Shown here: one piece after another, positions 19,922-64,000 of the stretch
How positions within the stretch are numbered: position 1 is the stretch's first letter
Layout of the letters: each line of letters begins with the position of its first letter
Origin: Malacoraja senta
Lineage: Eukaryota
Assembly: GCA_038087875.1 (NCBI GenBank)
Contig: CM075991.1
Coordinates: 3,720,001-3,784,000 of the forward strand
DNA length: 64,000 nucleotides
Direction: 5' to 3'
The notes under the pieces: model-generated
Databases searched by the model: none
Seen by the model: only the letters and a program-made list of their open reading frames with translations
What the model was told of the DNA's origin: nothing
Translations under genes and position numbers: made by a program

Positions 19922-20019
<98 letters not shown>

Positions 20020-41986: not shown

Positions 41987-42554
41987 CGGACGTGGCGCCG
42001 ACGGACGAGAGGCCGAAGCAAAGTTGAAGCCAAATAGCCGAATGGAAACGAAGCCGAAACGCCAAATAACTGAAAGCATACGAAGCCGAAACGCCAACGA
42101 ACCGAAAGGCTGCGTCGCCTAAGAGTACACTTACCGAATGGCCGCTCTGCCGAAGCGCCACCTAACCGAAAGGCTGCGTCGCCTGCAAGCCAACTAAGCA
42201 AATGCCGCTCTGCCGAAAAGTCAAATAATAGCTTGTGTTGGAAATGACCCCCACCCTCACGTCTCCACCGGCCAATGATGTGATGGACACGGGGGTCTGG
42301 CACAACCGCTGACAGGTCCCGCCCCCGGCGACATCATGTCTGTTATTTGACTTTTCGGCAGAGCGGCATTCGGTTAGTTGGCTTGTAGGCGAGTAGCCTT
42401 TCGGTTCGTTGGCGTTTCGGCTTCGTATGCTTTTGGTTCGTTGACGTTTCGGCTTCGTATGCTTTCGGTTATTTGGCGTTTCGGCTTCATTTCCATTCGG
42501 CTATTTGGCTTCAAATTCTTTGCTTCGGCTTCTCGTCCTTCGACGCCACGTCCG
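41987..42554. mobile_element. Foldback/MITE with ~240-bp inverted arms made of CCGAA sub-repeats
   Basis: cggacgtggcg..gccgaagcaaag mirrored by ctttgcttcggc..cgccacgtccg; no TSD seen. Confidence 0.8.
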
Positions 42555-43216
42555 GGTACCGTGAACCCTGACCCACTGGGATCTCCAATATGATCCAACA
42601 CAGCCCAGTGATTAGCCTCTGTTCTACCAACAGCAGGTGAGGGGTAAATATTGGCCAGTGTATAGGGGCAGATGCACATAATTCTGAGGAGATCCTTCAC
42701 TCCATCCGTGGAGTAGGTATAATGCTTCAGCTGGTGCTGCATAGGAGCACCCCTTAAGCTGGGGTTGGTCGGGGCATCAACCTGCACTACTCTCAGAAAC
42801 TTGCCCCGCCGAGGAGCAGTCGGGAAGCCTAGTGTGACCAGCTTTCGCGTAGCGCCATGGATATAATGTCCCTGCTCAGTGTCTGCTGTCGGCCGAGTCT
42901 TACTGTTAGATTCGAGAGTGAGAGAGAGTCAAATAGATTACCGTCTGTGTTCTGTGGCTGAAAGAAGCATGTGGATTCCGAAAGCTGAGCCCCGAGGAGC
43001 AGCAGAACGATGCACAGTAGGAGTTTCTGCGGTGAGAAAAGGAAAGAGAGAGAGACCTAGTCAGGCGACGTGGTCAAGTAACTAACACTGCAACATGTCC
43101 CTGTCACTGTCAATGTCACCTCGGAAGGCGGCTGTGCAGCGACTCAAAGGCGCGTTGGGTTGTTTATCGAAAACCAAGCAACAGTCAGGTGCACAAAGCT
43201 GATCCGTACGTACCAT
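42555..43216 (-). pseudogene. MSMB-like copy B, 5' half only (exon 1 ATG 43214-43216; exon 2 42942-43026)
   Basis: KLLLCIVLLLLGAQLSESTCFFQPQNTD with intact splice sites; homology to gene A intron 2 stops at the foldback element at 42554; no exon 3/4 found downstream. Confidence 0.8.
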
Positions 43217-45159
43217 GATCTCTGAACCAGACCGCTTCGCCCTAGTGAATGAGCGGACAGCCTCTGTCCCGCTGCCACCGCCTGCAGACTTCATTCTCCG
43301 CACTCGAGAATCTGCTTTCCAACCTTCGCTTACACTGCCTGTGTCCTATCCATTCAGAAAAGAGGTGGAGTTCCGCTGGTCCAACCTTTCACTTCACTGG
43401 TCTCCGCAACCAGCATATCATCCTTAAAGTCATAAAGCACCGAAGCTGAGCAAGCCTCAAAAAATGCCCTATCTACGCCAGTCCCACCTGCAAGTTTTTA
43501 GCCCAAGTCCGTTTAAACCATTTCTATCCATGGACCCGTCCAAATGTCTTTAATGCTATTGTGCGAACACCTCTCATCTCTCACTGTCCATCTGTAATTG
43601 CTGCTGCTACAAGCTGCGCTTTGTTCTGCCCCTCCCCTCTCCCAGTATCACACAATACCCACCATTACAATCAGTCTGAAGAAATGTCCCGACCTGAATC
43701 GTCACGTATAGTCATAGCGTCATACAATCACACAGCGCAAAAACAGGCTCTTCGACCTAACTTGCCCACACCGACGGACAACTCACTTCTAAACTATTCC
43801 CATCTGCCTGTTTTTGGCCCATATCCATGTGCCTCTCTAATTATTTCCGATGCGTTGGAATACTCGGTACCTCAGCTACCTCCTCTGGCAGCCTGTTCCG
43901 TACACCAACCAGGGTGAAAACGTTACCCCTTAGGTTCCTGTTAAATCTTTCCGTCTTCACCTTAAACCTATGTCCTCTGGTTCTCCATTCCTCTACTCTG
44001 GGCAAGAGAATCCGTGCGTCTATCCGATCAATTCCTCTCATGATGTTATACATCTAAGATCACCCCTCATCGTCTTGCGCCACAAGGAATAGACACACAG
44101 CCTGCTCAGTCTCTCCTAATAAATTCCATTCATTTCCACCAAACATTCCTCAGCTACCTACCCATCCGATCGAGATCCTGCTGCAATGTATTCCCTATCC
44201 ACGTTGTCCAAAGAGGCTTCCGGACCCATCGAGTTACTCCAGCACTCCTTTGTGAAGGTCTCTTTTTTGTCTTAAAAATTGCGTTGTAGTACGTGCATCA
44301 TCTACCTCCTCCGGTTGTACGTTCCATATACCCATCGCCCTCTTTCAGATTCCTATTAGATTCTCTCCTTAAACCTTTGCCCTCAGGACCTTGAAATCCA
44401 TACTTTGGGTAAAATCATCTGTGTATACATCCTATATACCTCCCTTAAGATTTTATCAGTAGTCTGCCCATCTAATCCCACCCTCCCCATTTGATCCTTG
44501 GCAGTTGTCACTACAAACTTAGAAAGTACAAAACTTGAAACTGCACCTCCTACCTCATCCCCGTTCACGGTTCTAAACAGCTCTTCTCGGGCGAGACGGA
44601 GACGCGCGAGCATCTCTCCCAATGCGGCGTGTTTGTTCATCGAATATCAACCAATATCACACAGGAACAGGCTTTCGGGCCACGATGGCTGTATTCAGTA
44701 ATTTTGCCCCTTCATATATCGCTGCTCTTCCTAATCAGTTTCTAATTTTACAATCGTGACCTTTCAAAATTGGAGCGAGTGTAGCCAACTAGACACACAA
44801 GCGTGTTCTGCCCTTCAATACCATCGATGTTAATTTGCTCCAGACAACATTTCGTCCTCTGGGCCAGATCCCGAGTTACCTTAATTCCGCAATCTTTCAA
44901 ACAATGTATATACTTCCTCTTTAAATAGCTCAAATGATCTGAATTCCATCATCCTCGAGGTAGTGAAATGGAAAGATTCGTCGCTCCCTACAAGAATAGT
45001 TCTACACACCTCAGCTTTAAATAGTTGGCTCTGATTCTGTTATTATCATCCTTCGGTTGCGATTGTCAGAAGGCACGTGACTAAGTTCCACGTAAAAGGC
45101 TGATACACAATATGGACGGTGCATTGTATATTAAGAGACGTACACTGCAGTGGAATAAA

Positions 45160-48100
45160 TATTTTACTTCGGAGTCACGTTTGTGACTACGTGAAGAAGA
45201 CCCGTCAGGGCGCATGCGCGTCATTACGTCGGTCGCATTGGCGCACAGACAGCGGGAGGACAGAGCTCCTCCCGATGTAAGTACTTTTAGGGCATTTTTA
45301 AAGAGTTTTAAAGCTCCAGCTAAGTCTGAAACTTGTCAGAAACTTAGCTGGAGTAAAATAAGTTCCTTGACTGTGGTGCTGTGCTCTGTGTTTTGTCACA
45401 GGCAGCACCACGGTGAAGACGATCAGGGGAGGATAGAGCTCCTCCTGTAGCAGGTACTTTTAAAGTACTTTTATAGTTTTAACGCTCCAGCTAAGTGGGA
45501 AGATTAGCTGGAGGGAAAGTTTATTTTGTGGTTCTCTGTGTTTTTTATTACAGGCAGCACCATGATGAAGACGACCAGGGGGAGGGCACCCGCAGGTAAA
45601 GCATAGGAGAGCCTCGGGAATGCGGTCTGTGAGAGGCTGCCTCGTACCCCTGCACAGTCCCCGACCGGGAGCGGGGCGACTTCAGACTGAGTGCTGAAAA
45701 GCACCAAAGCCAACGCCTGTCGGGCGTAAGGCACGGGGAAGTCTGGGAGGCCCTTGGACTCAACTGAGTCAGGCCACAACCAGCCTGTGCGGGGCTGGAG
45801 ACGTTTTTAAACGGTTCTCCCAAATGGAGCACCTCATCCAGAGGTTGCTCCAGAAACGCACACTCCGGGGAGGAGTCGTGTGGGCGGTAGGCTGCAGAAA
45901 GGCCACGCCAGCAGCACCTGGTAGAGGGCTGCTTAAAGCACCCTCATGCATGAGGTAAGTGCAGAGGGTCAGCTAAGGTCTGACCCCGACTCTGATTGAG
46001 ACTTGGAAATAGCGAAGAACGGCCGTTGTCAGAGGTCCTTTCTCTGGCAGCATGATTCGCTGTCCAGTCAGAGTATGGAGTGCCACTGGGAGAAGAGCGG
46101 GCCTCCAAGATAGGGTCAGCTCAGTTCTGACCCGATTCTGAAGGAGACTTTTTTGAATAGCGAAGAGAGGCCGTTGTCAGAGTTCCCATCTCTGGCAGTA
46201 CGATTCGCTGTCCAGTCAGAGTCTGGAAACACCAAGAGACGGGGTAACTGCGAGTTGCTGAAGGTGCCAGCAGTGAACCGGGTGATATGGAGCCAGATGG
46301 GCGTGGGCTTGCAGTGCCCAGGAGATGAAGCTGCAGAGAATCCTGAAATTACTTGGCTCGGGAATCACGGCATTCGCGAGAACAGTGGATGGAGGGCATG
46401 TGTGGGAGACACAGCAAGAGGTACTAGGGTTGCTTTGTAGCACCCATTTTTGAGATAAATTGTCTCAGGGAAAGTGCCATTCGGCCCACCATTAATTCCA
46501 AGGTTGCAGTATTTTTCCAGCCTAGCAACATACAGCCAGCAAACCTACTCTTCGGAGAGGACCTCGCCAAGAGTGTCAAGGACATGGACGGCGAGGCAAA
46601 GACGGTGGGCTTGATCAAGCCACCGGCAGTCGGCAACTTTTCAAAAGAAAGTACCCCTACAAACGAAGTGGGAACATGGTCATACATCCACCAGGTACCA
46701 AGGAGGTAGGTGGGCCTGGTTCTCAGGTGCACATATCAAATGTGACACAACTTAAACTGGGGTACATTACATCTGTTTCTGGGATGAATGGAAGCAAATT
46801 ACCTTAGCTCTGTTTATACAGAGTGTTATTCAAAGGTTTCGAATGAATTTCAATCCAAATTGTGATTTGCACATTCAGCATGTTCTTGGTAGAACTATTC
46901 AGTTTTCATTAACAGAACAGATGGATGTCCAGACTGCACTTGCAAGCTTATGTGATAAAGGTGTAATTATAAGTTTGTTCACCAACCCATCAATTTGTGT
47001 CTAATATTTTCCTAGGCCAAAAAAGGATGGGGGATGTAGTATAGACATTGTAAGATGGAATTGTCACTGCCAAGCAACTGGGCAAGAGGATGCTATATGG
47101 CGACTCTAGAGCTTAAAGATGCGCATTACTCAATGTCTGTTTAATTGCAGGATATTTGAAATTCATCTGGATGGATCAACTATGGCAACAAAATTGTTAA
47201 AACCTATAATAGGCATGCTGAAAGGCCAGGGTACAGGTGTTCATGGCTTATCTCGATGATATCTTGATTACAGGGGTATCCAAGAGAACAGCTGAAGTAA
47301 CAGGTGATAGTTGTTAAATCCAATTTTCAAAGATTGGGCATTAGCCATCCAGAGGAATCCAAATTAACACCTGACTATTTGGGTCACAATTGATTCAATT
47401 AAGTGACTCTGCCCAGGGAAAAAGGGTAGAGCTAATTGAGGCATTAAGGATACATTCGGGTCATTATAATAGACCTATGCAGTTATCAGTAAAGGCTATT
47501 TCTGATTTGCAATGGTGGATTCACCATGTGTCCAGAGGTTATAGCAAGGTAATGCTTGACCAGCCTTTCAGGATTTTGCAGATGAATGTCAGTGCACTCG
47601 GGTGAGGTGTCACGTATTCGAGTTTCAGCTGTGGAGGCAGATGGACTGAGCAAGAGGCATCGTTTCTGCAGACATGGGCAATTAACTATAAAGAGGCTAA
47701 TAGCTCTAACAAATGTAATCTGCATGTTCAGTTTCAGATTGACAATAATATGCAAGTGGCATATACATTAATGTGACAGGTTGGCTAATCACATTTGGGC
47801 TGGTGCATGGAAAAATATATTTCAGCTATTTATCTACCAGGTAGATTCTACATAGTAGCAGATGCCAAGTCACGAAAGTTCCATGACAACATAGATTGGA
47901 TGTTGAACCAGGAGGTGTTCAATAATATAGTACTTGTATATGAATGCCAGATATCGATTTGTTTTGCATCAAGGTTCAACCATCAGCAGCCTAAATAGGT
48001 TTCATGGAAACCAGACCAGGTGGCAGTTGCAATTGATACTTTGACGTTACATTGGGGTGGTATGTTTTATATATTTTCCTACCATTTTGCCCAATAGGTC

Positions 48101-49819
48101 GGAGTCTACAAGAAATCAAGCAGGATGCCGCTTTGAGGGTGCTTGTAATACCTAATTGGCCGAATCAAGCATGGTTCCCTTTGATGTTACAGTTAGGGAT
48201 CCAACCTCTTTTTGGTGGTTCCCAAGCGTAGGAAATGACAGGAGCATCCGCTTACAAGGGAAAGTCATCTGTTATGTGATTGTATTGACTTGTTAGTTTG
48301 CAGGTTTTAAGAAGGCCATACCTGAAGCAAGGACTGTCTGGGTGAACGGTGGACATGCTCACTGTAGCCTGGAGAAAGAGTACTCAAAAGGGGTATATTA
48401 CTTATGTAAAAAAATGGGAGCAATATTGTGTACAAAATAATATTGACTATAGTACTGCAGGTATTGTGGATATTTTAGAGTTCCTGTTGACATTCTACGA
48501 TGATGAGGGGCTCAGTTATAGCACCATTAATACAGCTTTAAGTGCTTTGTCATCGTATGGTTTTGATGGGGTCAGGAAAGATCCTATTGAGTTTCATCAT
48601 ATCATAGCTGGATTGATGAAAGGAATTTCAACTCTAAACTTCCTAAACCCAGGTATATGGCGATCTGGGATGTAAGTGTGTTCCTCAAGATTCTTCGACA
48701 GTAGGTTCCTGTCATGTCGCTGAATTTGCCAGACTAATCATGAAAGTGGTTATGCTCTTGGCATTGGTTCAGCATAGCAAGTGCAGATTTTGCAAAAACT
48801 TCTGCTAGACAGGATGGAAGTTGCGGAAGAGAATGTTATGTTATATAATTGCGTACTGCTTAAGCAGAGCAGGCCAGGTGTCACAGGTTTGTGAAAATTG
48901 TGTTTCAGCATAACCTACTGATCCATGTTTATGTGTAATGGCACATTTATTTTCATTATATTGAAGCTATAAAGACCTTAAGAAATGTGGAAACAGCATT
49001 GTTTATCAGTTACATGAAGCCACACAGGAGAGTATTAGTGCAGACTATCTCAAGGTGGTTTAAAGCAAATGTTGATTAAGGCAGGTATTAACACTGAAGT
49101 GTATATATCCTTTTTTCCACTAGTGCAGCAGCAACGTCGTCGGCTAGGACGATGGATGTTCACAGCGGCCATATTTTTATTGGTGCCGGGTGGTCAAATG
49201 AATTTTTTTTTTAATTAAAAAAAAAAAAAAAAAAAAATTAATTCGACCATCGGCCGATCGCCGATCGGAGAGAGGCTGTTTGCAAATTCATTAAGTCCTG
49301 TTTAGTTTCCTCTGGGATAGAGGGGTTACTGGTTGTTTTGATTATTCAAATCAATTGTTACTGCATGATATTCACATTTCATGTTTAACGCATTATTCAT
49401 TGTTTCTCATCGAAAGTCAATCAATGCAGTGAGAAGCCGGGATTTGGATCTGCGGCATAAAATCACAGATCTTTGAACCCTTCACGTAGTCACAAACGTG
49501 ACTCCGAAGTAAAATAGTAAGATTAAACGAGAACTTACCAAGTTTGAAGTTTGATCTTTATTTTATGACGGGTTACGTTGGTGATTACGTGCCCGCCACG
49601 CCCAACCCTCTCTCATAAAAAAGGTCATATGGTAGTTCTCATGTTGCTCATCTTAATATGTTACTTCAAATATTGTGTTATCTGTGATTTCATACCGCTG
49701 CTTTGAAGATTGACGCGCATGCGCCCTGACGGGACTTCTTCACGTAATCACCAACGTATCTCTTCATAAAATAAAGATCAAACTTCAAACTTGGTAAGTT
49801 CTCGTTTAATTTTACTATT
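45160..49819 (+). mobile_element. DIRS-type tyrosine-recombinase retrotransposon, full span but degenerate ORFs
   Basis: Left ITR 45160-45222; ICR 49480-49591 complementary to both ends; right ITR plus extension 49711-49819; RT remnants FLRPKKDGG and MAYLDDILI (~47245); methyltransferase-like FASRFNHQ..PNWPNQAWFP; YR N-terminus AWRKSTQKGY..GLSYSTINTALSALS (48349-48675). Confidence 0.93.
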
Positions 49820-50363
49820 CTTTATCACATTAACAATGGGTGACGTTTTGGGTCTGAAGAAGGGTCTAGAGCCGTAACGTCACCCATTCCTTCTCTCCAC
49901 AGATGCCGTCTGTCCCATTGAGTTCCTGCAGCGTTTTACATCTACCTTGGGACAATGCACTACCTCACACCATTCCAGCTTGGAAAAGATCTCCATTGTT
50001 AATGTGATAAACAATATTTAATCCACGACAGTGCATTTCTGAAAACCCTGTACAGGCAATCAGTAACTGGTATTACATGACATTTGGACGTGTCCATGGT
50101 TTCTAAAGATTTGGAGGGATATGGGCCATTGCAGGCAGATGGGACTAGCGCTGATGGGGCATGTTGGTCAGCATACAAGAGGACTCTGATAGGTGAGCAG
50201 CGAGAGGCAGTAGAGCGATGGCCAGTAGAAGATGACGGCAGAATAGGTTCTGTATATGTTTATTGTGATGCAAGAGCCATTACATTATTCTCAAGAGTCA
50301 ATGCTCCTGTATCCCATTGATGAATGTCTCCACGTTGAAAGGGAGCTGTCTGTTTATTCCAGC

Positions 50364-50493
50364 TCATTTCCCAACAACTCCATCTATTACACATTCGACA
50401 GCCCGGTCATTCTTCAAATTGACTTGAAACGAACAAGTATGAATATCGAAAGTTATCACACAATCTTCCGGGACACCAAGTGGCATAAAATAC
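50364..50493 (-). CDS. MSMB: MSMB-like gene A exon 4
   Basis: tattccccag acceptor; YFMPLGVPEDCVITFDIHTCSFQVNLKNDRAVECVIDGVVGK*; AATAAA on minus strand at 50259-50264. Confidence 0.92.
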
Positions 50494-51115
50494 CTGGGGA
50501 ATAGATCAGGGAAGCAATGATGAACAATTCGGAACATGTGTCTCAGCCCCAGGGACGTGGGTTCGACCCTGACCTCGGCTTCTGTGTGTGTGGAGTTTGT
50601 ACGTTCTCCCTGTGATTGCCTGGGTTATTTTCGTGGATGCTGAACTTTCCTCCCACATCCCAGAGTAAGGAACTTTTTCATACCCCGAGCGTACTGGTGG
50701 AGAACAATAGCTAGGTCCAACGACAATGCGGGTGGGATGATGCAGGATTAATGCATGGTCTGAGTAAGCGCTGTGAATCCTCCCTCTCTCTCTCCCTCTC
50801 CCTCTCCCTCGCCCTCTCCCTCTCCCTCTCCCTCCCTCCTTGTAGAATAATCCTAACCTCGTTTACTGTCCGCGTGGAGATCGCAATTGTTACCCCGCTA
50901 CAACGTACGTTTCATTCATGTGCCAGGACCGCACATTGGTGATGAATTTGCCAATGCAGTTTGTCCCGAGAGTTCAGGCGACTGAAGAATTCAAAACAAG
51001 GACACAAAGTACTGAAGCAACTCAGCGGGCCAGGCAGCACCTCTGGATTGTTCGAGTCGATCGCAGTCAGTGGACCCAGCCTGGGAGCGGCCGGAGATGC
51101 GGTCACTCGGACAAT

Positions 51116-52356
51116 ACATAATAGACAATAGACAATAGAAAGCAGGTGCAGGAGTAGGTCATTCTGCCCTTCTAGCCAGCACCGCCATTCATTGTAATCA
51201 TGGCTGATCATCCACAGTACCCCGTTCCTGCCTTCACCCCATATCTCTTGACTCCGCTAGCGTTAAGAGCTCTATCGAACTCTCTCATGAAAGCATCCAG
51301 TCAATTGGCCTCCATCTGAGGCAGAGAATTCCACAGATTCACAACTCTCTGGGTGAAAAAGTCGTTCCTCATTTCCGTTCTAAATTGTCTACCCCTTTAT
51401 GTTAAACCGGATTCCTGGTTCTGGACTCCCCCAACATCGGATACATGCCTCTAACGTGTCCAGTCCGTTAATAATCTTCCATGTTTCATTACGATTCCCT
51501 CTCATCCTTCTAAATTCCAGTGTATACAAGTCCAGTCGCTCCATTCTTTCAATAAATGACAGTCCAGCCATCCCGGGAATTAACCCCATGCATCCTGGGG
51601 GCATGAACATTGAATTTTCCCAATTTTGCTAGCCCTTGCTGTGTCCTCCCCTTCCTCAGCCCTCTGGTTGTCTCCTCCCATCCCTCAGCCCTCGGGCTCC
51701 TCCTCCGCCTTTTTCCTCTCTTCTCCCCACCCCTGAAGAAGGGTTTCGGCCCGAAACGTTCCCTATTTCCTTCGCTCCATAGATGCTGCTGCACCCGCCG
51801 AGTTTCTCCAGCATTTTTGTGTACCATTAACCTCATGAACCTACGCTGCACTCCCTGAATAGCAAGAATGTCCTTCCTCAGACTTGGAGACCAAAACTGC
51901 ACTCGATATTTTGTCACTAAGGCCCTGTACAACTGTAGAACGACGTCTTTGCTCCTCTACTCAACTCCTCTAGGTATGAAGCCCAACATGCCATTAGGTT
52001 TCTTCACTGCCTGCAGTACCTGCATGCTTACCTTCAGTGACTGGTGAACTGATGAACAAGGACACCCACATCTCGTTCTACTTCCCCTTTTCCTAACATG
52101 ACACTATTCAGATAATAACTTGCCTTCCCGTTTTTTTGGCAGCAAAGTGGATAAGCTAACATTTATCCACATCAAACTGCATCTGCCATGCATCTGCTCA
52201 CTCATCCAACCTGCAAGTCACCCTGCAACCTCAGAGCATCCTCGTCACTGTTCACACTGCCACCCAGCTTTGTGTCATCCGCAACTTTGCTAATGTTTCT
52301 ACCAATCCCCTCATCTATGTATATTGTAAATAGCTGCGGTCCCAGCACCGAGCCCG
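51116..52356 (-). mobile_element. CR1 LINE 3' portion inserted in MSMB-A intron 3, with nested Penelope fragment (~51585-51825)
   Basis: GSVLGPQLFTIYI..ISKVADDTKLGG..VQFWSP; absent at the homologous position of copy C. Confidence 0.88.
51733..51760 (+). ncRNA. Minimal type I hammerhead ribozyme motif in a Penelope-derived repeat
   Basis: CTGAAGA-A-GGGT(TTCG)GCCC-GAAAC-GTT; related copies at 18190-18217 (-), 24566-24593, ~30475, ~49855, ~53682. Confidence 0.6.
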
Positions 52357-52767
52357 AGAAGTCACTTGTCCATGTTCTCCAGAAATGCGGCCTGACCCAG
52401 TGCAATGAAGGCCCCGTGCCAGTGCAGTGTGATCCTTTGGTTTGCTTCGACTGCACTTTGAAGTCCTTCATTCAACCTCTTCCCTCCTTCTCCCCCTCCC
52501 TCCCTCACTCCCTCCCTCCGCCAAGCCTACCCCGCCGATACCCACACAGAACCATATCCCGGGCGAAGTTTCCCCGTGAATCGGGTTTGGTACAGAGATG
52601 GAGAGAGCCGGTGGCCGGGCCGTTCCGTCTCCTGTTGCCGTCAATTCCCAACCCATCGCCAGTCAAACGGCTCACACCACGGCATCGGCGATACCCCCTT
52701 GAGCCTGCGACGCCAGTTCAGCCGTCGGGGTCAGATCCTGTGAGCTAAACGGCGGATGATTACTTAC

Positions 52768-52885
52768 CGTTCGCAGCAATTATAGCCTCCTTGCGCACAC
52801 ACGCACTCCCAGCAGTTGGAGCTAAACCAACCTTCTCCGAATTCATGATAGGTTCCGTCATTTAGGTCAAAGCATACGCCCCTAC
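52768..52885 (-). CDS. MSMB: MSMB-like gene A exon 3
   Basis: GRGVCFDLNDGTYHEFGEGWFSSNCWECVCAQGGYNCCER; ccaacag / gtaagt; 118 nt. Confidence 0.93.
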
Positions 52886-54299
52886 CTGTTGGTGACAAAG
52901 ACAGCGGGTGGTCAATGTCCCGTCAAGGAGTGGAGTGACCCGAGAGGGTGGCGGGGTAGTGGTGTTGACTCAGTACAAACGCACCCTGGAAATGAGCCAT
53001 TCTGACCATTGGGAAGAGCCAGCGTCTGTCCACGTGTGTACTGACCCGGACCTGGCACTTGGCTGCACGGTCCCGTTTCACCCGGGTTCTGACAGCAGCG
53101 CCCGACCCAGCACCCAGCGCTCACTCCATATATTTTTTAAATTAAAAGGAACGTATTCAGCTATCTGCAGAAGTATTTATGCATGGAATTATACCAAAAC
53201 ACCCACCGCCATAACATCAATAGATCACAATAGCCACTGTCAATAGATCACAACCTACTATTAAATTACTATGTTACAATCCTGAGCCAGGAGACAGTCA
53301 GTCCCTCGAGGCGCCCATCATTCCTGGAACGCCTCCCTGGTGCTAGTGGACACATTTTTTTCCCAAGGGACATCTAGTCGCGGACCTAAGCTCGCCAAAG
53401 GTACAGTCAGTCGGCTCTGGTGGAATCCTCGTCTGCCTGGCGCCGTGAGCCGTGGCCAGGCCCAGTAACAAACCAACCAGATCCTCCGCTAATCTACCCA
53501 CTTCCCTCGGTACTGGGTGCACAAAGATCTGTATGGTGGGACTGAAGCGGAGCCATAAAGCAGGGAGCAGCTCATTCAAGTAGCTCGCTCCATAATTGTG
53601 TCAGAAGAAACTGCAGATACCTGTTTACACTGAAGATTGACATAAAATGGTGGAGTGACACTGCGGGTCAGGGGATCATGTCTGAAGAATGGTCTCGACC
53701 CGAATCGTCACCTATTCCTTTTCTGCAGAGATGCTGCCTGAGCCGCTGAGTTACACCAGCAATTTGTGTCTATCACGAAGGATTCGCCGCGCCCCTGGTT
53801 ACAGTGAGAACCCTGGCCCACTGGGATCTCCAATATCCATCTAGGCTGTGGGTGCCGGGACCAGTCAATGGTTTGGGATGAACCAGGCAAAATCCGTTTC
53901 GCGGCCAATGAGGTGTCGCCATTGTTGTAGGGAGCGTGGCTTCCATTGATTACACGGCATGATCCCACAGAGCACAGTGATGAGCCTCTGATGACCAGTT
54001 CTATCAACAGCAGTTGAGGGTCAAATATTGGTCAGTGTACAGGGGCAACTGCACTTCATTCTGAGGAGATCCTTCACTCCAACCGTGGAGAAGGTTTAGT
54101 GCCTCAGCTGAAGTGCGGCAGAGGAGCACGCTTTAAGCTGGGGATTGGTCGGGGCATCAACCTGCACCACCCTCAGGCTCCTGCCCGACCGAGGAGCAGG
54201 CGGGGAGCCAAGGGTGACCATCCATGGGAATAATTAGTCCCTGCTGTCGGCCGAGTCTCACTGTTGGATTCGAGAGAGAAATTTACATTGATAGATTAC

Positions 54300-54384
54300 C
54301 GACTGTGTTCTGTGGCTGAAAGAAGCAGGCGGATTCCGACAGCTGAGCCCCGAGAAGCAGCAGAGCGATGCACGGTAGGTGTTT
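54300..54384 (-). CDS. MSMB: MSMB-like gene A exon 2 (signal peptide + first Cys)
   Basis: tttctctccgcag acceptor; KHLPCIALLLLGAQLSESACFFQPQNTV; G|gtaatc; 85 nt. Confidence 0.9.
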
Positions 54385-54565
54385 CTGCGGAGAGAAAGGG
54401 AAAGAGAGAGAGACCTTGACAGGCGACGTGGTCAAGTAACTAACACTGGAACATGTCCCTGACACTGTCACCTCGGAAGGCGGCTGTGCAGCGACTCAAA
54501 GCCGCGTTGGGTTATTTATTGAAAACCAAGCAACAGTCAGGTGCACAAAGCTGATCCTTACGTAC

Positions 54566-54568
54566 CAT
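54566..54568 (-). CDS. MSMB: MSMB-like gene A exon 1 coding part (ATG only)
   Basis: gagatcATG|gtacgt on minus strand. Confidence 0.8.
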
Positions 54569-54999
54569 GATCTCCGAACCAGACCGATTCGCCCTCGTGA
54601 ATGAGCGGACAGCCTCTGTCCCGCTGCCACCGCCTGCAGACTTCATTCTCCGCACTCGAGAATCTGCTTTCCAAACTTCGCTTACACTGCCTGTGTCCTA
54701 TCCATTCAGAAAGGAGGTGGAGTTCCGCTGGTCCAACCTTCCACTTCACTGGTCTCCGCAACCAGCATATCATCCTTAAAGTCATAAAGCACCGAAGCTG
54801 AGCATGCCTCAAAAACATACTATCTCTACGCTAGTCCCACCTGCAAGTGTTTAGCCCAAGTACGTCTAAACCTTTCCTATCCACGGTCACGTCCAAATGT
54901 CTGTAATGCTATTGTGCGAACACCTCTCATGTCCCACTCTCTATCTGTAATTGCTGCTGCTACAAGTTACGCTTTGTTCTGCCCCCCTCCTCTTCCAGT

Positions 55000-55518
55000 G
55001 ACTGAGGGTAGGGGGGAAGAGAGGGAGGGAGAAGTGAGGGAAGGAATTGGAGAGGGAAGGAGCAGAGGGGAAAGAAGAGGGAGGGTGAACAGGGGGAGGG
55101 GGGAGAGTGCTGGGGGATGGGGGAGGGGAGGAAGAGGGATGACGAGGTAATGGAGGAGGGGAGGGGGGAAGAGGGAGGAGGGGAGGGATGGTGTGAGATG
55201 AGGAAGCAGAGGAGGGTTGGTGGAGGGTGGGGAGAAGGATGATGATGGAAGAGCGGAATAAGGGACTGAAGAATCGTTCAGGTTGATCTTATATCTTACC
55301 AGTTATTGCCATTTTGAACTTTAAAAACGTCGCAGTCGCGCTCCCACTTGCAGTTGGGCGGGATGGGGGGGGGGGGGTTGCCGTGACTCGCTTCACAACG
55401 GGGATCTCTGGCGTCACAACGGGAACCCGTCAGCCGCGCCTGTGCATTTGGGGGCTATGGGTCGGTGTTGGAATATTGCATTGCGGAACTGGCCCAACGG
55501 GTCCGCACCTGGTCTAGT
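55000..55518 (+). mobile_element. Putative non-autonomous Helitron-like element with GA-rich interior
   Basis: 3' GC-rich hairpin ggcccaacgggtcc followed by CTAG|T. Confidence 0.45.
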
Positions 55519-56129
55519 GTCCACTAAAGATATTAGATTCCTATCATGACCCTAGAGATACCTTTAGCTGCTCGTAATGGAGCAGTCCCCCTCATCCGTG
55601 GAATCAGCCCAATGAATCTCTTCTGGAGAAATCTCGTCCAAAGTCAGGATCTCCTTGAATAATGCAACCAAAACTCTGTACAATATTCCAGATATTATGT
55701 GCAATAGTTCATACACCTCCCCATTTCTAAGCTCCAACTTCCTTGGAAAATCTGCCAACATGCCGTTTATCTTTTTAAACAGTTGTTGTACTAACGTTTG
55801 GCAATTTATGGACGCAGGGATCCCACTCAATTTGGTCATCTGTCTATGATTTTAATTAAATGATTGCCTGCCATTGCATGCACCTGACCAAAAAATACAT
55901 AAGCTCACAATCCCCACATTAAGCTGCACTTGCCATTGTTTCGGCCGCTCACTCAACTCGCCTTAAGATAAACATGCAGGCCCAGCAGACAATTTTGGTG
56001 GGATATGGACCAAACGCAGGCACGTGGGGCAAGTGTGGCTGTAACATGTTAGCCGGTGTGGGAATGTTGGGCCGAATGGACTGTTTCCACACAATATCAC
56101 TATGACTCTAATTATAACGGCAGTTATAA

Positions 56130-56460
56130 GAGACCGAGGTCGATGAGCGACGTGGTCAAGTAACTAACGCTGCAACATGTACCTGTCACCGTCACCTTGG
56201 AGGGGGGGGGGGGTGGAATGTTCCCTGACTCAAAGCTTCGCTGATCTATCTACACAAGACCAAGCTGGCCCATTCATTTGTACCTTGATGTCTCAACCAG
56301 GCTGGTCACCGTCACTGTTTGCTCTGAGGGGGGGGGGATGTCCAGCGACAATCTCCGCCCGGATGGCAGCGCCTGCAGCCCTTTATTCTCCAGTCTCGAG
56401 AACGGGTCTCTCAACTTCACGGACACAAGCCGTTTCGCTGCATGTCTTCTATCTACTCGG
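56130..56460 (-). pseudogene. MSMB-like promoter/exon 1/intron 1 relic E (ATG appears as AAG at 56284-56286)
   Basis: Shares gcgacgtggtcaagtaactaac..caacatgt.cctgtcac and ttctcc...ctcgagaa blocks with genes A and B. Confidence 0.6.
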
Positions 56461-56568
56461 AACTGCGGTAACTTTCATCCCAATAGCGCCCACAACCAGC
56501 ACGTCATCATCTCCACCCCTGTCAGCTCCAACCGGATCTCTGCCCCTCTCCAACGCCACACCCTTCCC

Positions 56569-56602
<34 letters not shown>

Positions 56603-57360
56603 TTGTTGAATAAATCTGACCGCAGTTACTGTCTGTGTGGAGATTGCAATTTTCCTGCCACCACGTGAGTTTCCTCCGTGTGCTCTGACTACAAGGGTCT
56701 GCAGACTGGTGATGAATTTGCCATTGCAGTTTGCCTTGTGTTCAAAGCAGTTGAGAAAACTGACGGGAATGTTTGGAGACTTTTTTAAGACTGGTTGGGA
56801 ATTTTTTTTAAAGGATATAAAATGCTGGAGTGACTCTGCGGGTCAGGCAGCAGCTCTGTTGAGCAAGCGCAAGCGAATTACCGAGCTGGTTACAGTCGGT
56901 GGACCCGGCCTGAGAGCGGCCGGAGATGCGGTCACTCGGACGATGGGTCACATCTAGAAATGTCCACTTATATGTTCTCCAGAGATGCGGCCTGACCCAG
57001 CGCACTGATGGGCCCGTGCCGTGTGAATCTAAGGTTTGCTGCGACGCCTTTTACAGTCCTTCATGTAATCTCTTCCGTCCTACCCCCTGTCTTTCCCTCC
57101 CTCCCTACCTCCGCCAAGCCTTCCCCAATGATCACCACCCAGAATCAGATCCCGGCCGAAGCTTCCCCGTGTATCGGGATTTGGTACATTGATGTAGAGA
57201 GCCCGTGGTCAGGACCATTCCGTCTACTATGCGCGTCAATTCTCAACCCCTCGCCAATCCACAAGGCTCACACCCTGGCATCTGCGACGCCAACCCAACC
57301 CATGCGTGCAGGTTCAACCGTCGCGGTCAGATCCTGTGAGTTAAAAGGCGGATGACTTAC

Positions 57361-57478
57361 CGTTCGCAGCATTTATAACCCGTGCGCGCACACACGCACA
57401 GCCAGCAGTTAGTGTTCTTCCAATTTTCACCGAATTGATGAGTCGTTCCGTCGTTTGTGTCAACGCACGTGCCCTTAG
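57361..57478 (-). pseudogene. MSMB-like copy C, orphan exon 3 with flanking introns (~56600-58100)
   Basis: KGTCVDTNDGTTHQFGENWKNTNCWLCVCARTGYKCCER; ccgacag / gtaagt; exons 2 and 4 not found at the homologous positions. Confidence 0.85.
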
Positions 57479-58574
57479 CTGTCGGTGACAAAGACAGCGG
57501 GTGGTCAGTGTCCCTTCGGGGAGTGGAGTGACCCGGGGGAGGTGGCAGGATCGTGGTGTTGGCTCAATATCAACGCACCCTGGAAATGAGCCATTCAGAC
57601 CACTGGGAAGAGCCAGGGTCCGTCCAGGTGTGTACTGACCCGGACCTGGCACTTGGCTGCACGGCAGCGTTTCACCTTGGTTCCGAGAACGGCTCCCGGG
57701 TGAAACGGTACCGGGTAACATTAAATATACCCAGCTACGTACAGAAGTATCTATGCATACCTTGTTATGGAGGTCGGTAACAAAACACCGACCTCCATAT
57801 CATGAGACGGTCAAAGATCACAAACAGAAATCAAATTACGATGTTACAATCTTGATCCAGGTGACAGTCAGTCCCTCTCGGCTCCCAGCGGTCCTGGATC
57901 ACCTCTCTGGTGCCAGTGGGCACTGCGTGTTCTTTTTCAAGGGAACAGCCGGGCGCGGACGTTAGCTTGAAAAAGTGGCAGGCAATCGGCTCTGATGGAG
58001 ACTTCGTCTGCAGGACGCCGTGACCCGCACATGATTAGTTTTGCGCAAACCAACCAGATCCTCCTCTGATCTACCCACTCCCCTCCGCACGAGGTGCAGA
58101 CAGATTTTGGATTTAGTGTTGTGTGATGAACCGGATTTGGTAAGGGAACTCGAGGTAGAGTTCAAGAAGGGCAAGAGGCAGGAAAGGACACGCTAGAGCC
58201 AGGAAACACCTTCCCGATGTTGAGGGAGTCCGGAACCAGGAGACACAGTTTAAAAATAAGGGAAAACCCATTTAGAACGGAGATGAGGAAAAACCTTTTC
58301 ACACAGAATAGTTTTTCACGTTGCAATAGTCCCTGCTTCAACTACTACCTCTGGCAGCTTGTTCCATACACGCACCGTCCTTCGTGTGAAAGGGTTACCC
58401 ATCAGGTTTCTATCAAATCTTTCTCCCTTCACCTTCAACCGAGGTCCGCTGCTTCTCCATTCCCCCACTCTGGGCAAGATAATCCGTGCGTCTATGCGAT
58501 CTATTCTTCTCATGATTTTATCTATATTACTAAAAGTCTCATCTTAACCACTTCCTGTTGCTCTGTATATTGAT

Positions 58575-59927
58575 TTTAGAAAAAATGCTGCCACTTACGG
58601 CTGTGATCTTTGGCCATCTTACTCAGAGTCCCCCTCCGCTGCGCAGGACAAGAGGATTTTCCCATTGATGAAGAATAAAAGAGTTATTCGTGTTTAAAAA
58701 ATGTTGAGATTCTCTCTCCTGAAGGCCACGCCCCTTCCGGAGGGACTATAAAACCCGGAAGTGTGGAGGTGCCTCAGTTCTCTGCAAGATGGGGGAGCGA
58801 GTGGTCGCAATTCTCAGTCTGAGCTGTGAATAACACTGAACACATGTCTACTAAACTGTGAGTGGTTTTAATAACCTGTCAGTGCCCTTAATGTGGGTTG
58901 AAAATGTAGTTTGAAAGTGCTAAAGCTGTGTTGCCTTTGGTTTGAAAGTGCTAAAGCTGTGTTGCCTTTGGTTTGAAAGTGCTAAAGCTGTGTTGCCTTT
59001 GGTTTGAAAATGCTAAAGCTGTGTTGCCTTTGGTTTGAAAGTGCTGAAGCTGTGTTGCCTTTGGTTTGAAAGTGCTAAAGCTGTGTTGCCTTTGGTTTGA
59101 AAGTGCTAAAGCTGTGTTGCCTTTGGTTTGAAAGTGCTGAAGCTGTGATGCCTTTGAATTGAAAGTGCTGAAGCTGCGTTGCCCTTGGTTTGAAAGTGCT
59201 AAACTGCTTTAGTTTGAAAGTACTAAAGCTGCCTTGCATAATTAAAGCTGCCTTGCCTAATTAAAGCTGCCTTGCCTAATTAAAGCTGCCTTTGGCCATC
59301 TTACTCAGTCCCCCTCCGCTCATCAGGTGCCGAGGATTTTTCCCATCGATGAAAAATAAAAGAGTTATTAGTGTTTAAAAATTGTTGAGATTCTCTCTCC
59401 TGTCAATCACGCCATAAAGGCAACGCCCCTTCTGGTGGGAGGGGGGGGACTATAAAACACGGAAGTGTGGGCGTGGCTCAGTCTCTGCAAGATGGCGGAG
59501 GGAGAGGTCATGACTCGCTGTCTTTAGTGGCCTTGCACCCTGCTTGAAATAGTATGAAACTGCACTTGAATTTGGTGGCCTTGAACCCTGCTTGAAGTGG
59601 TATGAAACTGCACTTGAATTTGGTGGCCTTGCACCCTGCTTGAAATGGAATTTCAAGGAATAGCCGTGAGTCAACTGCCAGCCCACCAGCCGTGAGTGAG
59701 TGAGCTGCCAGCACAACAGGCTTGAGTGACTGAGCCGTCAGCCCAAGAATCCATTCGGACCACAATGTCCATACTAGCCATCTGGAAACCAGTCCCTTCA
59801 GCGCACAGCACCCATACTAGCGGTACAGAAAGACCCCCCACTGCACTGCCCACCAATATTGGAATTGGTGGAGAGGTGGAATATTGCGTTGGGGGACCAG
59901 CCCTCCCGTGTGATGCATAGTCTAGTA
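58575..59927 (+). mobile_element. Composite minisatellite-carrying element (Helitron-like end)
   Basis: ~200-bp direct repeat (58607-58800 / 59290-59505), three internal tandem arrays, ends tagtCTAG|T; splits sequence that is contiguous at ~44050. Confidence 0.45.
58910..59225. repeat. 31-bp minisatellite, ~10 copies; also 19-bp x4 (59224-59290) and 48-bp x2.5 (59527-59645)
   Basis: (taaagctgtgttgcctttggtttgaaagtgc)n directly adjacent, no spacers. Confidence 0.95.
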
Positions 59928-61065
59928 CACCACTATAAAATCACCCCCTCATCCTCCTGCGCTCCAAGGAATAGATTGCCAGCCAGCTCAAACTTTCCCA
60001 ATTAAATTGCATTAAATTCCATCAACCATTCCTCAGCCCACCTGGCCAACAGATCACGATCCTGCTGCAATTGTGCCTATCCATGTTTGTCAGAGATTCT
60101 ACCTGACCCATTGAGTTACTCCAGCAATTTGTCTCCTTTTTTTTGTCTTTTAAATGGCATTATGGCACCTGCATGAGCTACCTCCTCTGGCAGCTCTTTC
60201 CATATACCCGCCGACTTCTGGGAGAAAAAGATTCGTGTTAGATGTTGTCTCTCTTTCCTTAATACTTGATATTTCCTTATGTCCTTGAGACTTTCCTTAT
60301 GTACTTGATACTTCTTCTCTGGGTAAAATCCTCTGTGTATCCATCCTATTTCACTTATGATTGTATACACCTCTACACGTTCACGCGTCAGCCTCCTGTG
60401 CTCCAAATGCTACAGTCCTAGCCTGCCCCCCCCCCTCCCCTTATAGCTCAGGCCTTTGTGTCCCGCCAAAGTCCTTACGAAATTGTTCTGCTATCTTTCC
60501 AGCTTCATGACATCCTTCCTATGATCTAACGATGACCAAAACTGGACACAATACACCAAACGCGATCTCACTAAAGTGTTGTTGAACTGAAACGTAACAT
60601 CCTAACTTCTATACTCAATAACCTGAATGAAAAGTACAATAATTCGAAAACCCACGACGTTTAACCATCTACATTTGACGCCACTTTCAGGGTTTTGTGG
60701 ACCTGCATTCCTAGATTTATGTGCTTTTTCCTTCTCCACATCTGGCAGTTCCAAGGCCATCTCACCACCAACCACATCTTCCCACCCCATCGCCACCCCT
60801 TCCTGCTTCCCGCATGGCCAATTCCCTTCCTAACTCAGATCTCTGCTCATCTCGTCCCACTCTCCCCACCTGACCCCGGGCATCTTTCGTCACAAACTTT
60901 GAGAACGCATCACTTGAAACTGCACCTCTCCCTCATCAAAGTTCAGAGTCCTAAACAGGTCTTCTCACGTGCATCTCCCCCAACCTGGCGCGTTCATCCA
61001 TCTAGCATCGACCAATACCACACAGGAACAGGTTTTCGCCCAACAATGTCTGTGCTAAATTTGAT

Positions 61066-61215
61066 GCCTACCATGATCTCCCAATCAGGCCGCTTCTCCC
61101 CAGTGTCTGAGCGGGACCTCCTCCCCAATGGCACCGCCGGCAGCCTGTTATTCTTCGGCCTCGAGAACCGGACTTTCAACTTTAGCTTAAGATCCATGTG
61201 TCCTATCTACTCACA
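61066..61215 (-). pseudogene. MSMB-like promoter/exon 1 relic D (ATG 61072-61074)
   Basis: gagatcATG|gtaggc plus upstream similarity to exon 1/promoter of A and B; no exon 2 adjacent. Confidence 0.6.
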
Positions 61216-62397
61216 AGGTCGGCGGATTTCTGGTCCCACCTTTCAACCCAATAGCCCCCACAAGCAACACATCATCCTTGTCCACCTCTGCCAGTTCCAA
61301 CGGGATCTCACCCCCAGCCCAATCACCCACTCCCCTGCCCTTTCTGCTTTCCGCGGGGACCACACTCTTCCTGACTCACAAATCTGTTCATCCCCTCCAA
61401 CCCTCCCCTCCTGACACTTGGAACTTTCCTCTGCATACAGATACACTGCAATACTGAGACCCTGCCCCTCCTCACACATCAACATGTAGGGTCAAGACAG
61501 TCTTTTGCAGGTGGGGCATAATGGTCGGACGGGATAATGTTAAGGGACATATCGGTCCTGTTTCTCAGGCACAAATAGCGCCAGATGTCTGGAACCCGGT
61601 GCCAGGGGCAAGTGTTGGGATCAGCCTTGATTTTGTTTTTTTTAAGATGCTTTCGATGGGCGCGTGCGTATGCAGGAAATAGATGGATGTTGATCACATG
61701 TAGGCAGAAAGGATTGGATTATGAAGGCATCGTGTTTGGCACAGACATTGTGGGCCGAAAGCCAGTTCCTGTGTTGTATTGGTTGATGTTCCATGAACAA
61801 ACACGCAACGTTGGGAGAGATGCACGTGAGTCTCCGCCTCGCCTGAGAAGAGATGTTTTGGTTCCTGAACGGTGATTAGGGAGGAGGTGCAGTTTCAAGT
61901 TTTGCATTCTCTACGTTCATAGCGAGACGTGCCAGGAGGCAGATGGGGAGGGTGGCATCAGATGACCAGACTGTGATAAAATGATAAGGGGGGGTGAGAT
62001 AGGATGGATGCGCAAAGAATGTTACCCAAAGTAGGGATATGAAGAACCTGACGACATAGGTTTAAGGACACAGGGACGAAATCTAACAGGAACCTGAGTG
62101 TTAACCTTGTTACGACGAGGGCTGTGGGTACATGGAACGTGTTACCAGAGGAGGTAGTGATGCATGTAATATCACGTGATTTTTAAGGCAAACAAAAAGA
62201 CAAAGTGCTGGAGTAACTCAATGGATCGGAGAGCATCATTGGTTGATGGAAATTAATGTAATTTAATAGGATGTGGTTGAGCAGCCTGGGAGTCTATTCC
62301 TTAGGGCGCAGGAGGATGAGGGGGTGATCATATAGAGGTGTATAAAATCATGAGAGGATAGACGCAGGGATTCTCTTGCCCCAGGGTGGGGGAACAG

Positions 62398-63068
62398 AAA
62401 CATGGGAACATAGAAAATATGTGCAGGAGTCGGCCATTCGGCCCTTCGAGCCAGCAGCGCCATTCAACACGATCAAGGCTGATCACCAAAATTAGTAGCC
62501 CTTTCCTGCTTTCTCCCCATATCCCTTGATTCCGCTAGCCCTAAGACCTATATCTAACTCTCTTTAAAACATCCAGTGAATTGGCCTCCATTGCCTTCTG
62601 TGGCAGAGAATTCCACAGATTGACAACTCACTGGGTGAAAATGGTTTTCCTCATCTCAGCCCTAAATGCCATACCAATTATTCTTAAACTGTGACCCCTG
62701 GTTGTCGACTCCCCCAACATCGGGAACATTTTTCATGCATCTCGCCTGTCCAATACCTTTAGAATTTTATATGTTTCTAAAATATCCAATCTCATCCGTC
62801 TAACTTCCAGTGAATATAAGCGCAGTCGATCCATTATTTCATCACATGTCAGTCCCGCCATCCCGGGAATAACCTGGTGAAACGACGCTGCACTGCCTCA
62901 ATAGCAAGAATGTCCTTCCTCAAATTAGGAGACCCAAATTGCACACTCCAGATGTAGTCTCACCAGGACCCTGTACAACTGCAGTAGCACCTCATTGATC
63001 CTATACTCAAGTCCTCTCGTTATGAAGGCCAACGTGCCATTTGCTTTCTTCACAGCCTGCTCTACCTG
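62398..63068 (-). mobile_element. CR1 LINE 3' fragment
   Basis: Same family as 25317-26145; other short tails at 4325-4418, 17600-17765, 18345-18660, 29080-29260, 38650-39015. Confidence 0.85.
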
Positions 63069-63870
63069 GAGATGTTACATTAAATTCCTTCGTCTAAATC
63101 GTTAATACATATTGTAAAAAAATATATGGAGAACCAGAGGTCCAAGGTCAAGGGAGGAAAAGTTAATAGGAAACCGAGGGGTAACTTTTTCCATATAACG
63201 GGCCATGGGTGTATGGAACAAGCTGCCAGAGGAGGTAGCTGAGGTAGGGTCTATAGAAATATTTAGAAAACAATTAAACAGGTACATAGATATGGGGCAA
63301 ACACAGGCCGTTGGGACGAATGTAGATGTGACATTTTGATCGGTGGGGGCAAGTTGGGCCGAAAAGCCTGTTTTCACGCTGCATGACTGTATGATCATGA
63401 TCATGGGGACACTTCTTCAGACTGATTGGGGGGGGGGCAAAGAAAACTGGAAGTGGGAGGGGCAGAACAAAGCATAGCATGTAGCAGCAGTCATTACAGA
63501 TGGAGAGCATTGAGAGGTGTTCGCACAATACCATTACAGACATTTGGATGGGTCCAATGGTAGGAAAGGTTTAGACGGATATGGGTTAAACACTTGCTTG
63601 TGGAACTAGCATATATAAGGGATTTTTGGTGACATGTTCAGTTTCGGTGCTTTATGACATTAAGGATAATATGCTGTTTGCGGAGACCAGTGAAGTGAAA
63701 GGTTGGACCTGCGGAACTCCGCCTCTTTTCTGAATATATAGGACACAGGCAGCATAAACCGAGATTGGAACAAAGATTCTCGCGAGCGGAGAAGGAAGTC
63801 TGTAGGCGGTGCCAGCGACACCTATGCTGTCCGCGCAGACACTGGGGAGAGGCGGTCGGGTTAGGTGATC

Positions 63871-63873
63871 ATG
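63871..63873 (+). CDS. MSMB-like copy F exon 1 (ATG); the rest is expected beyond the window
   Basis: gtgatcATG|gtatgt; 63680-64000 is the reverse complement of the promoter/exon 1/intron 1 of copies A and B. Confidence 0.7.
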
Positions 63874-64000
63874 GTATGTACGGGTCAGCTTTGTGCATCT
63901 GACTGATGCTTAGTCCTCAATAATCAACACAGCGCAGCTTTGAGTCGCTGCACAGTCGCCTGCCGAGGTGGCCGTGACAGGGACATGTTGCAGTGTTATT

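Follow-up and report, generated by a model that had tools for sequence, protein, structure and literature searches.

Microseminoproteins of the PSP94 family (Pfam PF05825) are encoded by genes of a recognisable kind. MSMB and USM genes have four coding exons, with the start codon ending exon 1, and by the coordinates listed in the same source chicken MSMB3 has exons of 3, 85, 103 and 130 nt (PMC3268785). Opossum, anole, zebrafish and habu are published cases of lineage-specific MSMB or USMH arrays, one of them including a pseudogene. MSMB proper lies in synteny with FAM21C, ANUBL1 and ARID5B, and USMH/SSP genes with ARID5A/ELP3. In habu, the SSP genes form a lineage-specific tandem array in which one segment is inverted and fragments of transposons and of a pseudogene occur (PMC6609765), and the skate cluster reported here is alike. 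Among the literature matches listed for skate, shark, cartilaginous fish, birth-and-death and fish mucus there was no study of this cluster; most subscription papers lay outside that coverage.

We analysed a window of 64,000 nucleotides of Malacoraja senta (contig CM075991.1; all positions below are those of the window), in which the initial annotation had placed six related loci, A to F. All six are genuine homologues, and gene A is a complete, intact microseminoprotein-type gene on the minus strand, with coding exons of 3, 85, 118 and 130 nt and GT-AG borders at all three introns. Its coding sequence of 336 nt contains a single stop codon, at its end. The coding part of exon 1 (54566-54568) is the ATG only, with a GT donor next to it and an A at -3; exon 2 (54300-54384) encodes the signal peptide and the first mature cysteine, exon 3 (52768-52885) the six cysteines of the N-terminal domain, and exon 4 (50364-50493, stop included) the three of the C-terminal domain. 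Candidate AATAAA poly(A) signals lie on the same strand at 50259-50264 and 50353-50358. As had been claimed, the gene escapes the open-reading-frame track: no stop-to-stop frame of at least 100 aa encodes it.

The product of 111 aa consists of a signal peptide and a 92-residue, 10-cysteine PSP94-family protein. The predicted signal peptide shows a hydrophobic core, with a Kyte-Doolittle mean of 2.91 over 9 residues, and carries small side chains at -3/-1 ahead of residue 20. Mature cysteines stand at positions 2, 15, 35, 38, 40, 47, 48, 61, 70 and 84; this spacing (12,19,2,1,6,0,12,8,13) is identical in 8 of the 17 chondrichthyan relatives checked, and its last eight gaps are matched in 16 of them. 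The mature protein is acidic, with a pI of 4.4 and a charge of about -7. Three RefSeq models carry a 27-residue N-terminal extension that is probably a prediction artefact; an upstream in-frame ATG is present in A and B, and there is none in D, E or F.

Gene A and its copies almost certainly form a PSP94-family array. Scored singly, exon 3 of A (E 0.0037, 18.2 bits) and of C (E 0.00099, 20.1 bits) both had PSP94 as their best Pfam match, below the PF05825 cut-off of 22 bits. The full-length little-skate (Leucoraja erinacea) orthologue XP_055518472.1, which is 79% identical to the gene A protein (22/27 residues in exon 2 and 31/42 in exon 4), exceeds this cut-off with 34.5 bits, and the joined gene A protein reached 100 bits on our own profile of 95 non-skate relatives, bearing out the family named in the initial annotation. 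Post-Met length and cysteine spacing of XP_055518472.1 equal those of gene A; gene A itself was not among the matches of the protein searches. The top six PDB matches of exon 3 are PSP94-family chains. Exon 4, searched alone, had no Pfam match and no PDB family match; it matches the profile of non-skate relatives with E 8e-8. Gene A has the ten mature cysteines of the family, in the pattern given in PMC3268785. An all-beta PSP94 fold was predicted (pLDDT 89) for the little-skate paralogue XP_055518467, modelled instead of gene A, and the five best Foldseek matches of this model all belong to the PSP94 family, human PSP94 being the best (E 6.4e-8). The placement of gene A is also supported by its exon phases and by a first exon that codes the ATG alone, both of which are as in the family.

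With its four coding exons and an exon 1 that ends in the ATG, gene A fits the MSMB/USM branch. MSMP (PSMP) shares the cysteine framework, and some skate copies are named 'prostate-associated microseminoprotein-like' in RefSeq; MSMP genes, however, have three coding exons and a last exon of 181-221 nt and are strongly conserved, whereas gene A has four, ends in one of 130 nt and lies in a variable array. MSMB/PSP94 genes (human, pig, chicken MSMB1-3, opossum MSMB1-14) have in common with the skate array the four coding exons, the ATG-only exon 1, the 130-nt exon 4, the ten cysteines, the fold and tandem duplication. Exon 4 of gene A fits MSMB proper (about 130 nt), and exon 3, at 118 nt, falls outside the 103-110 nt of MSMB and also differs from the 121-133 nt of USMH/SSP. 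The latter genes (anole USMH1-7, zebrafish usmh1-3, habu SSP1-5) likewise have four coding exons; in anole USMH, exon 3 (127-130 nt) is longer and exon 4 (106-115 nt) shorter than the 118 and 130 nt here. Exon 3 of gene A aligns with snake SSP-2 without gaps. The Cys2-Cys3 gap of 19 is that of SSP-2, compared with 18 in human and pig MSMB and less in chicken MSMB3, and is also the commonest among relatives (76 of the 153 with the pattern). Neither the MSMB flanking genes FAM21C and ANUBL1 nor the USMH flank ARID5A was seen in the window. The label 'MSMB' is too specific, as gene A may be orthologous either to MSMB or to USMH/SSP.

Copy B (42590-43646, minus strand) is a 5' half with promoter, ATG (43214-43216), exon 2 (42942-43026) and the start of intron 2, 87% identical to A over 1069 nt. 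Searches of the whole window by tblastn with 10 skate proteins and by profiles yielded no exon 3 or 4 for B, the sole extra exon 3 being that of C, and when exons 3 and 4 were aligned as DNA to 35000-42900 and 43500-50200, the scores did not exceed those of shuffled sequence. Copy C (56561-58105, minus strand) has an intact 118-nt exon 3 (57361-57478) with AG/GT borders and intron flanks; its exons 2 and 4 were not found in the window by tblastn, two profiles or local DNA alignment. Copy D (56129-56579, minus strand) retains promoter, exon 1 and intron 1 (191/279 positions shared with A; score 130, with shuffles reaching at most 42), its start codon lost through a change of ATG to AAG at 56284-56286. 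Copy E (61041-61351, minus strand) comprises promoter, exon 1 with ATG (61072-61074) and GT donor (176/235 identical to A, score 175 against 33 for shuffles). No exon 2 was detected for D or E by tblastn, two profiles and local DNA alignment. On the plus strand, copy F (63446-63998) shows promoter, ATG (63871-63873), GT donor and intron 1 (329/399 identical to A, score 513 against 31); it runs off the end of the window and could be complete past that edge.

E and C could be the remains of a single copy, since exon 1 of E and exon 3 of C stand in gene order, only repeats lie between them and exon 2 is missing there (exon-2 score 29, shuffle maximum 37). Beyond the poly(A) signal of gene A we found a further relic, G (50175-50234, minus strand), which preserves exon 2 from the signal peptide to the first cysteine (profile E 4.7e-5; 40/53 identical in DNA alignment, score 54, shuffle maximum 34). 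G was undetected by the profile of non-skate relatives (E 2.6), has no good acceptor and is interrupted by a repeat; in sequencing runs X3 and X7, paralogous contigs continue through it. With C and E possibly single and G added, the window holds 6 to 7 PSP94-family copies, one of them complete. The initial count of six separate loci is thus right as to homology but needs amending for C and E, for F, which may be whole, and for the overlooked G. A profile match at 41052-41201 (E 0.18) was rejected as an exon on inspection.

The distal promoter segment of gene A (54690-54776, plus strand) derives from a dispersed repeat and aligns to copies at 35414-35503 and 37830-37887; the same repeat is also present ahead of F and of E, and in weaker form ahead of D. 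It may be Penelope-like, though Pfam searches with two of its frames gave nothing to back this name. We rejected the idea that D and E are mere repeat copies, because the repeat explains the distal promoter alone (in A, from about 54690 upward) and the likeness to A goes on through exon 1 in E and intron 1 in D. Where B ends lies a palindromic, MITE-like element with long inverted arms (41982-42559), and between G and B a decayed tyrosine-recombinase retroelement (45160-49819, plus strand; terminal inverted repeats; PF13495, 27.1 bits at 48346-48672), presumably DIRS-like. The single neighbour identified within the window is an SRCR receptor gene (5391-28471, plus strand) transcribed toward the cluster; it comprises seven SRCR exons, one exon for the transmembrane segment (about 26865-26997) and one for a tail with a tyrosine motif. 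The innate-type receptor neighbour proposed earlier is therefore real, but nothing ties it functionally to the cluster.

RefSeq beta-microseminoprotein-like genes of L. erinacea, Rhinoraja longicauda and Amblyraja radiata (XP_032869730.1) likewise occur several per contig, as in the window array: a single Leucoraja contig carries seven microseminoprotein-like genes, and a single Rhinoraja contig four. The window holds mostly broken copies, whereas these relatives are known here as proteins only, among which pseudogenes are invisible. In the tree, 12 of the 13 skate sequences group together, and gene A pairs with XP_055518472 (99/95) within a skate clade of nine (98/95). The one skate sequence left out of the skate grouping is XP_078284829, and all 13 form one group in only 40% of the bootstrap trees. 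The tree supports a skate-lineage expansion of the PSP94 family, and the birth-and-death process suggested in the initial annotation is upheld. Exon-4 contigs from runs X1, X3 and X7 differ from gene A by 14 to 46 letters, so further copies exist beyond the window. One X1 contig covers gene A exon 3 with zero differences, and another, over 54622-54806, is 25 letters from A, the same count as copy F. A third, over 53984-54220, is probably another copy, since it shows 34 gapless differences against B's 31 with gaps, and it was not counted as proof of B.

SSPs evolve fast, whereas two small comparisons in the skate gave no acceleration: for exon 3 of A and C (38 codons) dN was 0.30 and dS 0.46, and for exon 2 of A and B (28 codons) dN was 0.085 and dS 0.153. 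Exon and intron differences (31/118 against 194/986, p = 0.12) likewise left accelerated evolution of the skate copies unsupported. Gene A is very probably expressed. No RNA sample was among those listed for 50235-50545. The four runs compared, of 11 listed (X1, X2, X3 and X7), cover introns, behave like DNA and are neutral on its expression; the 15 read joints listed, with 1218 more beyond the listing, all fall in repeats.

It is very unlikely that the partial copies are assembly artefacts of a repetitive array and not dead genes. Tandem arrays do assemble poorly, the seven annotated little-skate genes form such an array, no contig spans the whole stretch, and the points at which B, C, D and E break off (near 42590, 56570, 56130 and 61040) lie outside the part compared with contigs. 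The window, however, is without any N; divergence of the fragments from A is 13-32%, so that they are not redundant haplotigs; D has its start-codon change; contigs of the organisms coded B and E run through the junction of exon 4 and G; and X1 contigs match A and F, though X1 may be the source sample. The best explanation overall, which we hold with moderate confidence, is a skate tandem array of PSP94-family genes in which gene A encodes a secreted, CAP/CRISP-binding regulator. The window would be one end of this array of MSMB/USMH/SSP-type genes, in which a unit of promoter and four short exons was presumably copied by unequal crossing-over and the copies later broken by deletions and transposon insertions. 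The 3' half of B would have been lost at the palindromic element and exon 4 of C at a (CT)n tract; D would have lost both its start codon and its second exon. G may be an old relic travelling with the copied unit. The gene A protein would be secreted into seminal, oviducal, mucosal or plasma fluid and would bind a CAP/CRISP-family protein via its N-terminal strand, keeping the partner inactive as PSP94 and SSP-2 do; skate paralogues may differ in partner or tissue.

For the main role of gene A we lean slightly towards CAP/CRISP binding, because gene A retains an aromatic residue at position 4 of the mature protein. In mature PSP94, F4 is required for CRISP binding (PMC8857485); F stands at this position in gene A and in 8 of 17 relatives, the other nine being without it, so this single residue varies among paralogues. 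By analogy with human MSMB and chicken MSMB3, reported as fungicidal and antibacterial (PMC3320615, PMC8167871), gene A could instead be a direct antimicrobial in mucus, semen or egg jelly, and the SRCR receptor gene adjoins the cluster. We regard this as rather improbable for gene A. The active human peptide (residues 66-76) is cationic, with four K/R and two D/E, and its activity is tied to positive charge (PMC3320615), whereas the matching 11 residues of gene A hold no K/R and one D; mature A, at pI 4.4, also contrasts with the pI of 9.3 given for chicken MSMB3 (PMC8167871). The antifungal parallel drawn in the initial annotation is weakened by this charge. Some paralogues hold two or three K/R in the segment, so an antimicrobial role may suit those better.

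Skates lay encapsulated eggs, and the coats of marsupial eggs contain USM, as egg white does MSMB3; by this precedent gene A could serve, with no CRISP partner, in the structure or protection of the egg capsule, the egg jelly or the fluid in which sperm is stored. Such a role appears unlikely for gene A, which has a full exon 4, unlike marsupial USM, and relatives of which occur in the live-bearing Heptranchias, Narcine and Pristis. In favour of the role is the reproductive-tract specialisation seen in marsupials and birds, with zebrafish usmh ESTs largely from the reproductive tract (PMC3268785). It is quite doubtful that the skate genes make up a fast-turning branch of their own, at a locus beside SRCR genes and away from the MSMB and USMH sites, that radiated into several specialised egg-capsule or sperm-storage proteins and whose orphan exons are spare promoters. 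Orphan first exons such as that of E would then splice into exon 2 of A and add a second tissue pattern with the protein unchanged, an idea suggested by an exon 1 that encodes the start Met only.

The cluster is real but fairly ordinary, because the family multiplies and decays in many vertebrates and a matching cluster is annotated in other skates. It was 'hidden', as first described, from the open-reading-frame track, but three other skates have it annotated, and as early as 2011 an EST of the little skate was listed for the family. Although no new kind of system is revealed, correct models are now given for a short-exon gene that such tracks overlook. The expand-and-decay pattern of microseminoproteins in opossum, anole, habu, zebrafish and chicken reaches cartilaginous fish, a group for which the literature matches listed gave no paper on it, and the skate array, with live and dead copies adjacent, is a usable case for asking which partners the extra copies bind.

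Gene A, an intact four-exon gene of the PSP94 family, lies on the minus strand, with a first exon consisting of the ATG alone (54566-54568), exons 2 (54300-54384) and 3 (52768-52885), and a fourth exon (50364-50493) that holds the terminal stop codon; every intron has GT-AG borders. The 336-nt coding sequence has a single stop, at its end, and yields 111 residues: a 19-residue signal peptide and a 92-residue mature chain with 10 cysteines, a pI of 4.4, and no N-glycosylation site. The exon sizes given by the initial annotation (3, 85, 118, and 130 nt) are exact for this gene, which was also rightly said to escape the ORF track: no ORF of at least 100 aa in the window covers it. An upstream in-frame ATG would add 27 codons in A (54566-54646, minus strand) and in the fragment B (43214-43294, minus strand), an extension used in three RefSeq skate models; at this site an AATAA-like box stands in fragments D and E, and the edge-truncated copy F lacks an ATG.

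The top PDB hits of exon 3 of A were six PSP94-family chains, and in Pfam exon 3 of both A and fragment C matched PSP94 (PF05825) best, at 18.2 and 20.1 bits, just below the cut-off of 22; exons 2 and 4 of A, each searched alone, had no Pfam match. When exon 3 was used to look for homologues, the single protein retrieved was XP_055518472.1 of the little skate (Leucoraja erinacea), which is 79, 85, and 74% identical to exons 2, 3, and 4 and exceeds the Pfam cut-off (34.5 bits). With the joined A scoring 100 bits against a profile made from 95 relatives outside the skates, these results bear out the proposed PSP94-family assignment. The predicted structure of a little-skate paralogue, XP_055518467 (pLDDT 89), found its five best structural matches in human PSP94, chicken MSMB3, pig MSMB, and snake SSP-2. 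In MSMB and USM genes, unlike MSMP, the first exon is described as coding for the start Met alone, and the exon phases are those found in A (PMC3268785); A is not an MSMP. Between MSMB and USMH/SSP, for which the published criterion is synteny, the sequence evidence is split: exon 4 has MSMB length, exon 3 is intermediate in length, and the Cys2-Cys3 gap equals that of snake SSP-2.

Along minus-strand transcription the order is E, about 3 kb of repeats, C, D, A, G, a recombinase element, and B. E, 5' of C, retains the promoter and exon 1 with ATG and donor intact; C has an intact exon 3 with intron flanks and breaks off near 56570, at a (CT)n tract; D, between C and A, comprises the promoter, exon 1 without ATG, and intron 1. 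G (50175-50234) is an exon-2 relic, and B, with promoter and exons 1-2, breaks off at a palindromic element (41982-42559), which is MITE-like, each arm containing 32-nt internal repeats. F starts at 63871 on the plus strand and runs out of the window. The decayed, DIRS-like tyrosine-recombinase element between G and B (45160-49819) has an N-terminal-domain match, terminal inverted repeats, and many stops. The gap between E and C holds a repeat element (58608-59509 and 59523-59746) that contains a 31-nt unit repeated 9.5 times and more short arrays.

Alignments of all copies to A scored above their shuffles, most narrowly for G (54 vs 34), which the profile of non-skate relatives missed. A dispersed repeat is the source of the distal promoter in A, E, F, and weakly D; the common sequence runs on into exon 1 and intron 1, which rules out that D and E are mere repeat copies. 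E and C follow each other as parts of one gene would, and their identities to A are similar (75 and 80%), so they may be a single copy that lost exon 2. The window thus holds six or seven copies: the six loci first listed (A-F) are indeed homologues, but E and C, which may be one, were counted separately and G was overlooked.

The fragments and breakpoints suggest that the array grew by tandem duplication and lost copies by deletion and transposon insertion. B's break abuts a block (40512-41900) that is a 70-75% copy of the region upstream of the neighbouring SRCR gene (359-1400), an arrangement that would be consistent with a single deletion having taken away the 3' ends with which an SRCR copy and B faced each other; positions 1-59 also match 41023-41081, and no coding meaning was found for the block. 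Accelerated evolution, looked for in two short comparisons, was not found. The SRCR gene (5391-28471, plus strand) encodes a type I membrane receptor whose seven SRCR domains are group-B-like, and it also has a transmembrane exon and a tail bearing a tyrosine motif; further exons are probable near 31360-31540 and 34320. A single domain matched DMBT1 best in the PDB, and by architecture we take the gene to be CD163/WC1-like. Its introns hold LINE-type reverse-transcriptase and L1-like frames (9097-10062, minus strand; 11420-14883; 19818-20993, plus strand). The receptor gene reported beside the cluster is therefore real, but a functional tie between them is not supported.

Contigs from four public runs (X1, X2, X3, X7) aligned to 50150-54850 cover introns, and the runs behave as DNA. 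X1 contigs show zero letter differences from the window at 52369-53063, 53168-53466, and 53745-54127; another has 25 letter differences from A, as many as F has, and one with exon 4, differing from A at 22 letters, has no source within the window. X1 is possibly the source sample, so its matches are not independent. X3 and X7 derive from two other organisms; in each of them there were three different exon-4 contigs, some reaching through G, which indicates that G has long travelled with the duplicated unit. In RefSeq a 15.58-Mb Leucoraja contig carries seven of these genes, a 19.79-Mb Rhinoraja contig carries four, and Amblyraja has one, as counted from accessions and isoform labels, with one-contig placement inferred from equal length. 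Among the other cartilaginous fish, which were thinly sampled, sharks, rays, and chimaera also have relatives. The postulated lineage-specific expansion is supported by a tree of 32 rows, which groups 12 of 13 skate rows (93/90) and makes A sister to XP_055518472 (99/95); one Rhinoraja row is unplaced, and all skates form one group in 40% of bootstrap trees.

PSP94 is reported to bind CRISP2 and CRISP3, with sterol binding blocked, and snake SSP-2 to bind a venom CRISP; such binding requires F4 in the mature protein (PMC8857485), a residue that A retains. By analogy, A would on balance act as a CAP/CRISP binder in a secreted fluid, which we rank first, ahead of an egg-capsule or sperm-storage role. 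Direct antimicrobial action ranks third: a human MSMB peptide is fungicidal (PMC3320615) and chicken MSMB3 antibacterial (PMC8167871), but the human peptide (66-76) is cationic and MSMB3 has a pI of 9.3, whereas A is acidic and its corresponding segment lacks both K and R, which weakens the antifungal parallel drawn earlier. The retained F4, the acidity, and this segment underlie the ranking.

No paper on a cartilaginous-fish array was found among the literature matches listed, and a little-skate EST was listed under the family in 2011 (PMC3268785). Lineage-specific arrays are described from opossum (14), anole (7), Xenopus (4), zebrafish, and chicken (PMC3268785). The habu SSP array is reported to carry an inversion, transposon fragments, and a pseudogene (PMC6609765), much as the skate window has the opposite-strand F, a retroelement, and fragments. 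The cluster is real and was largely well described, but it is not hidden: the skate array is already annotated in RefSeq, and it follows mostly a known pattern.
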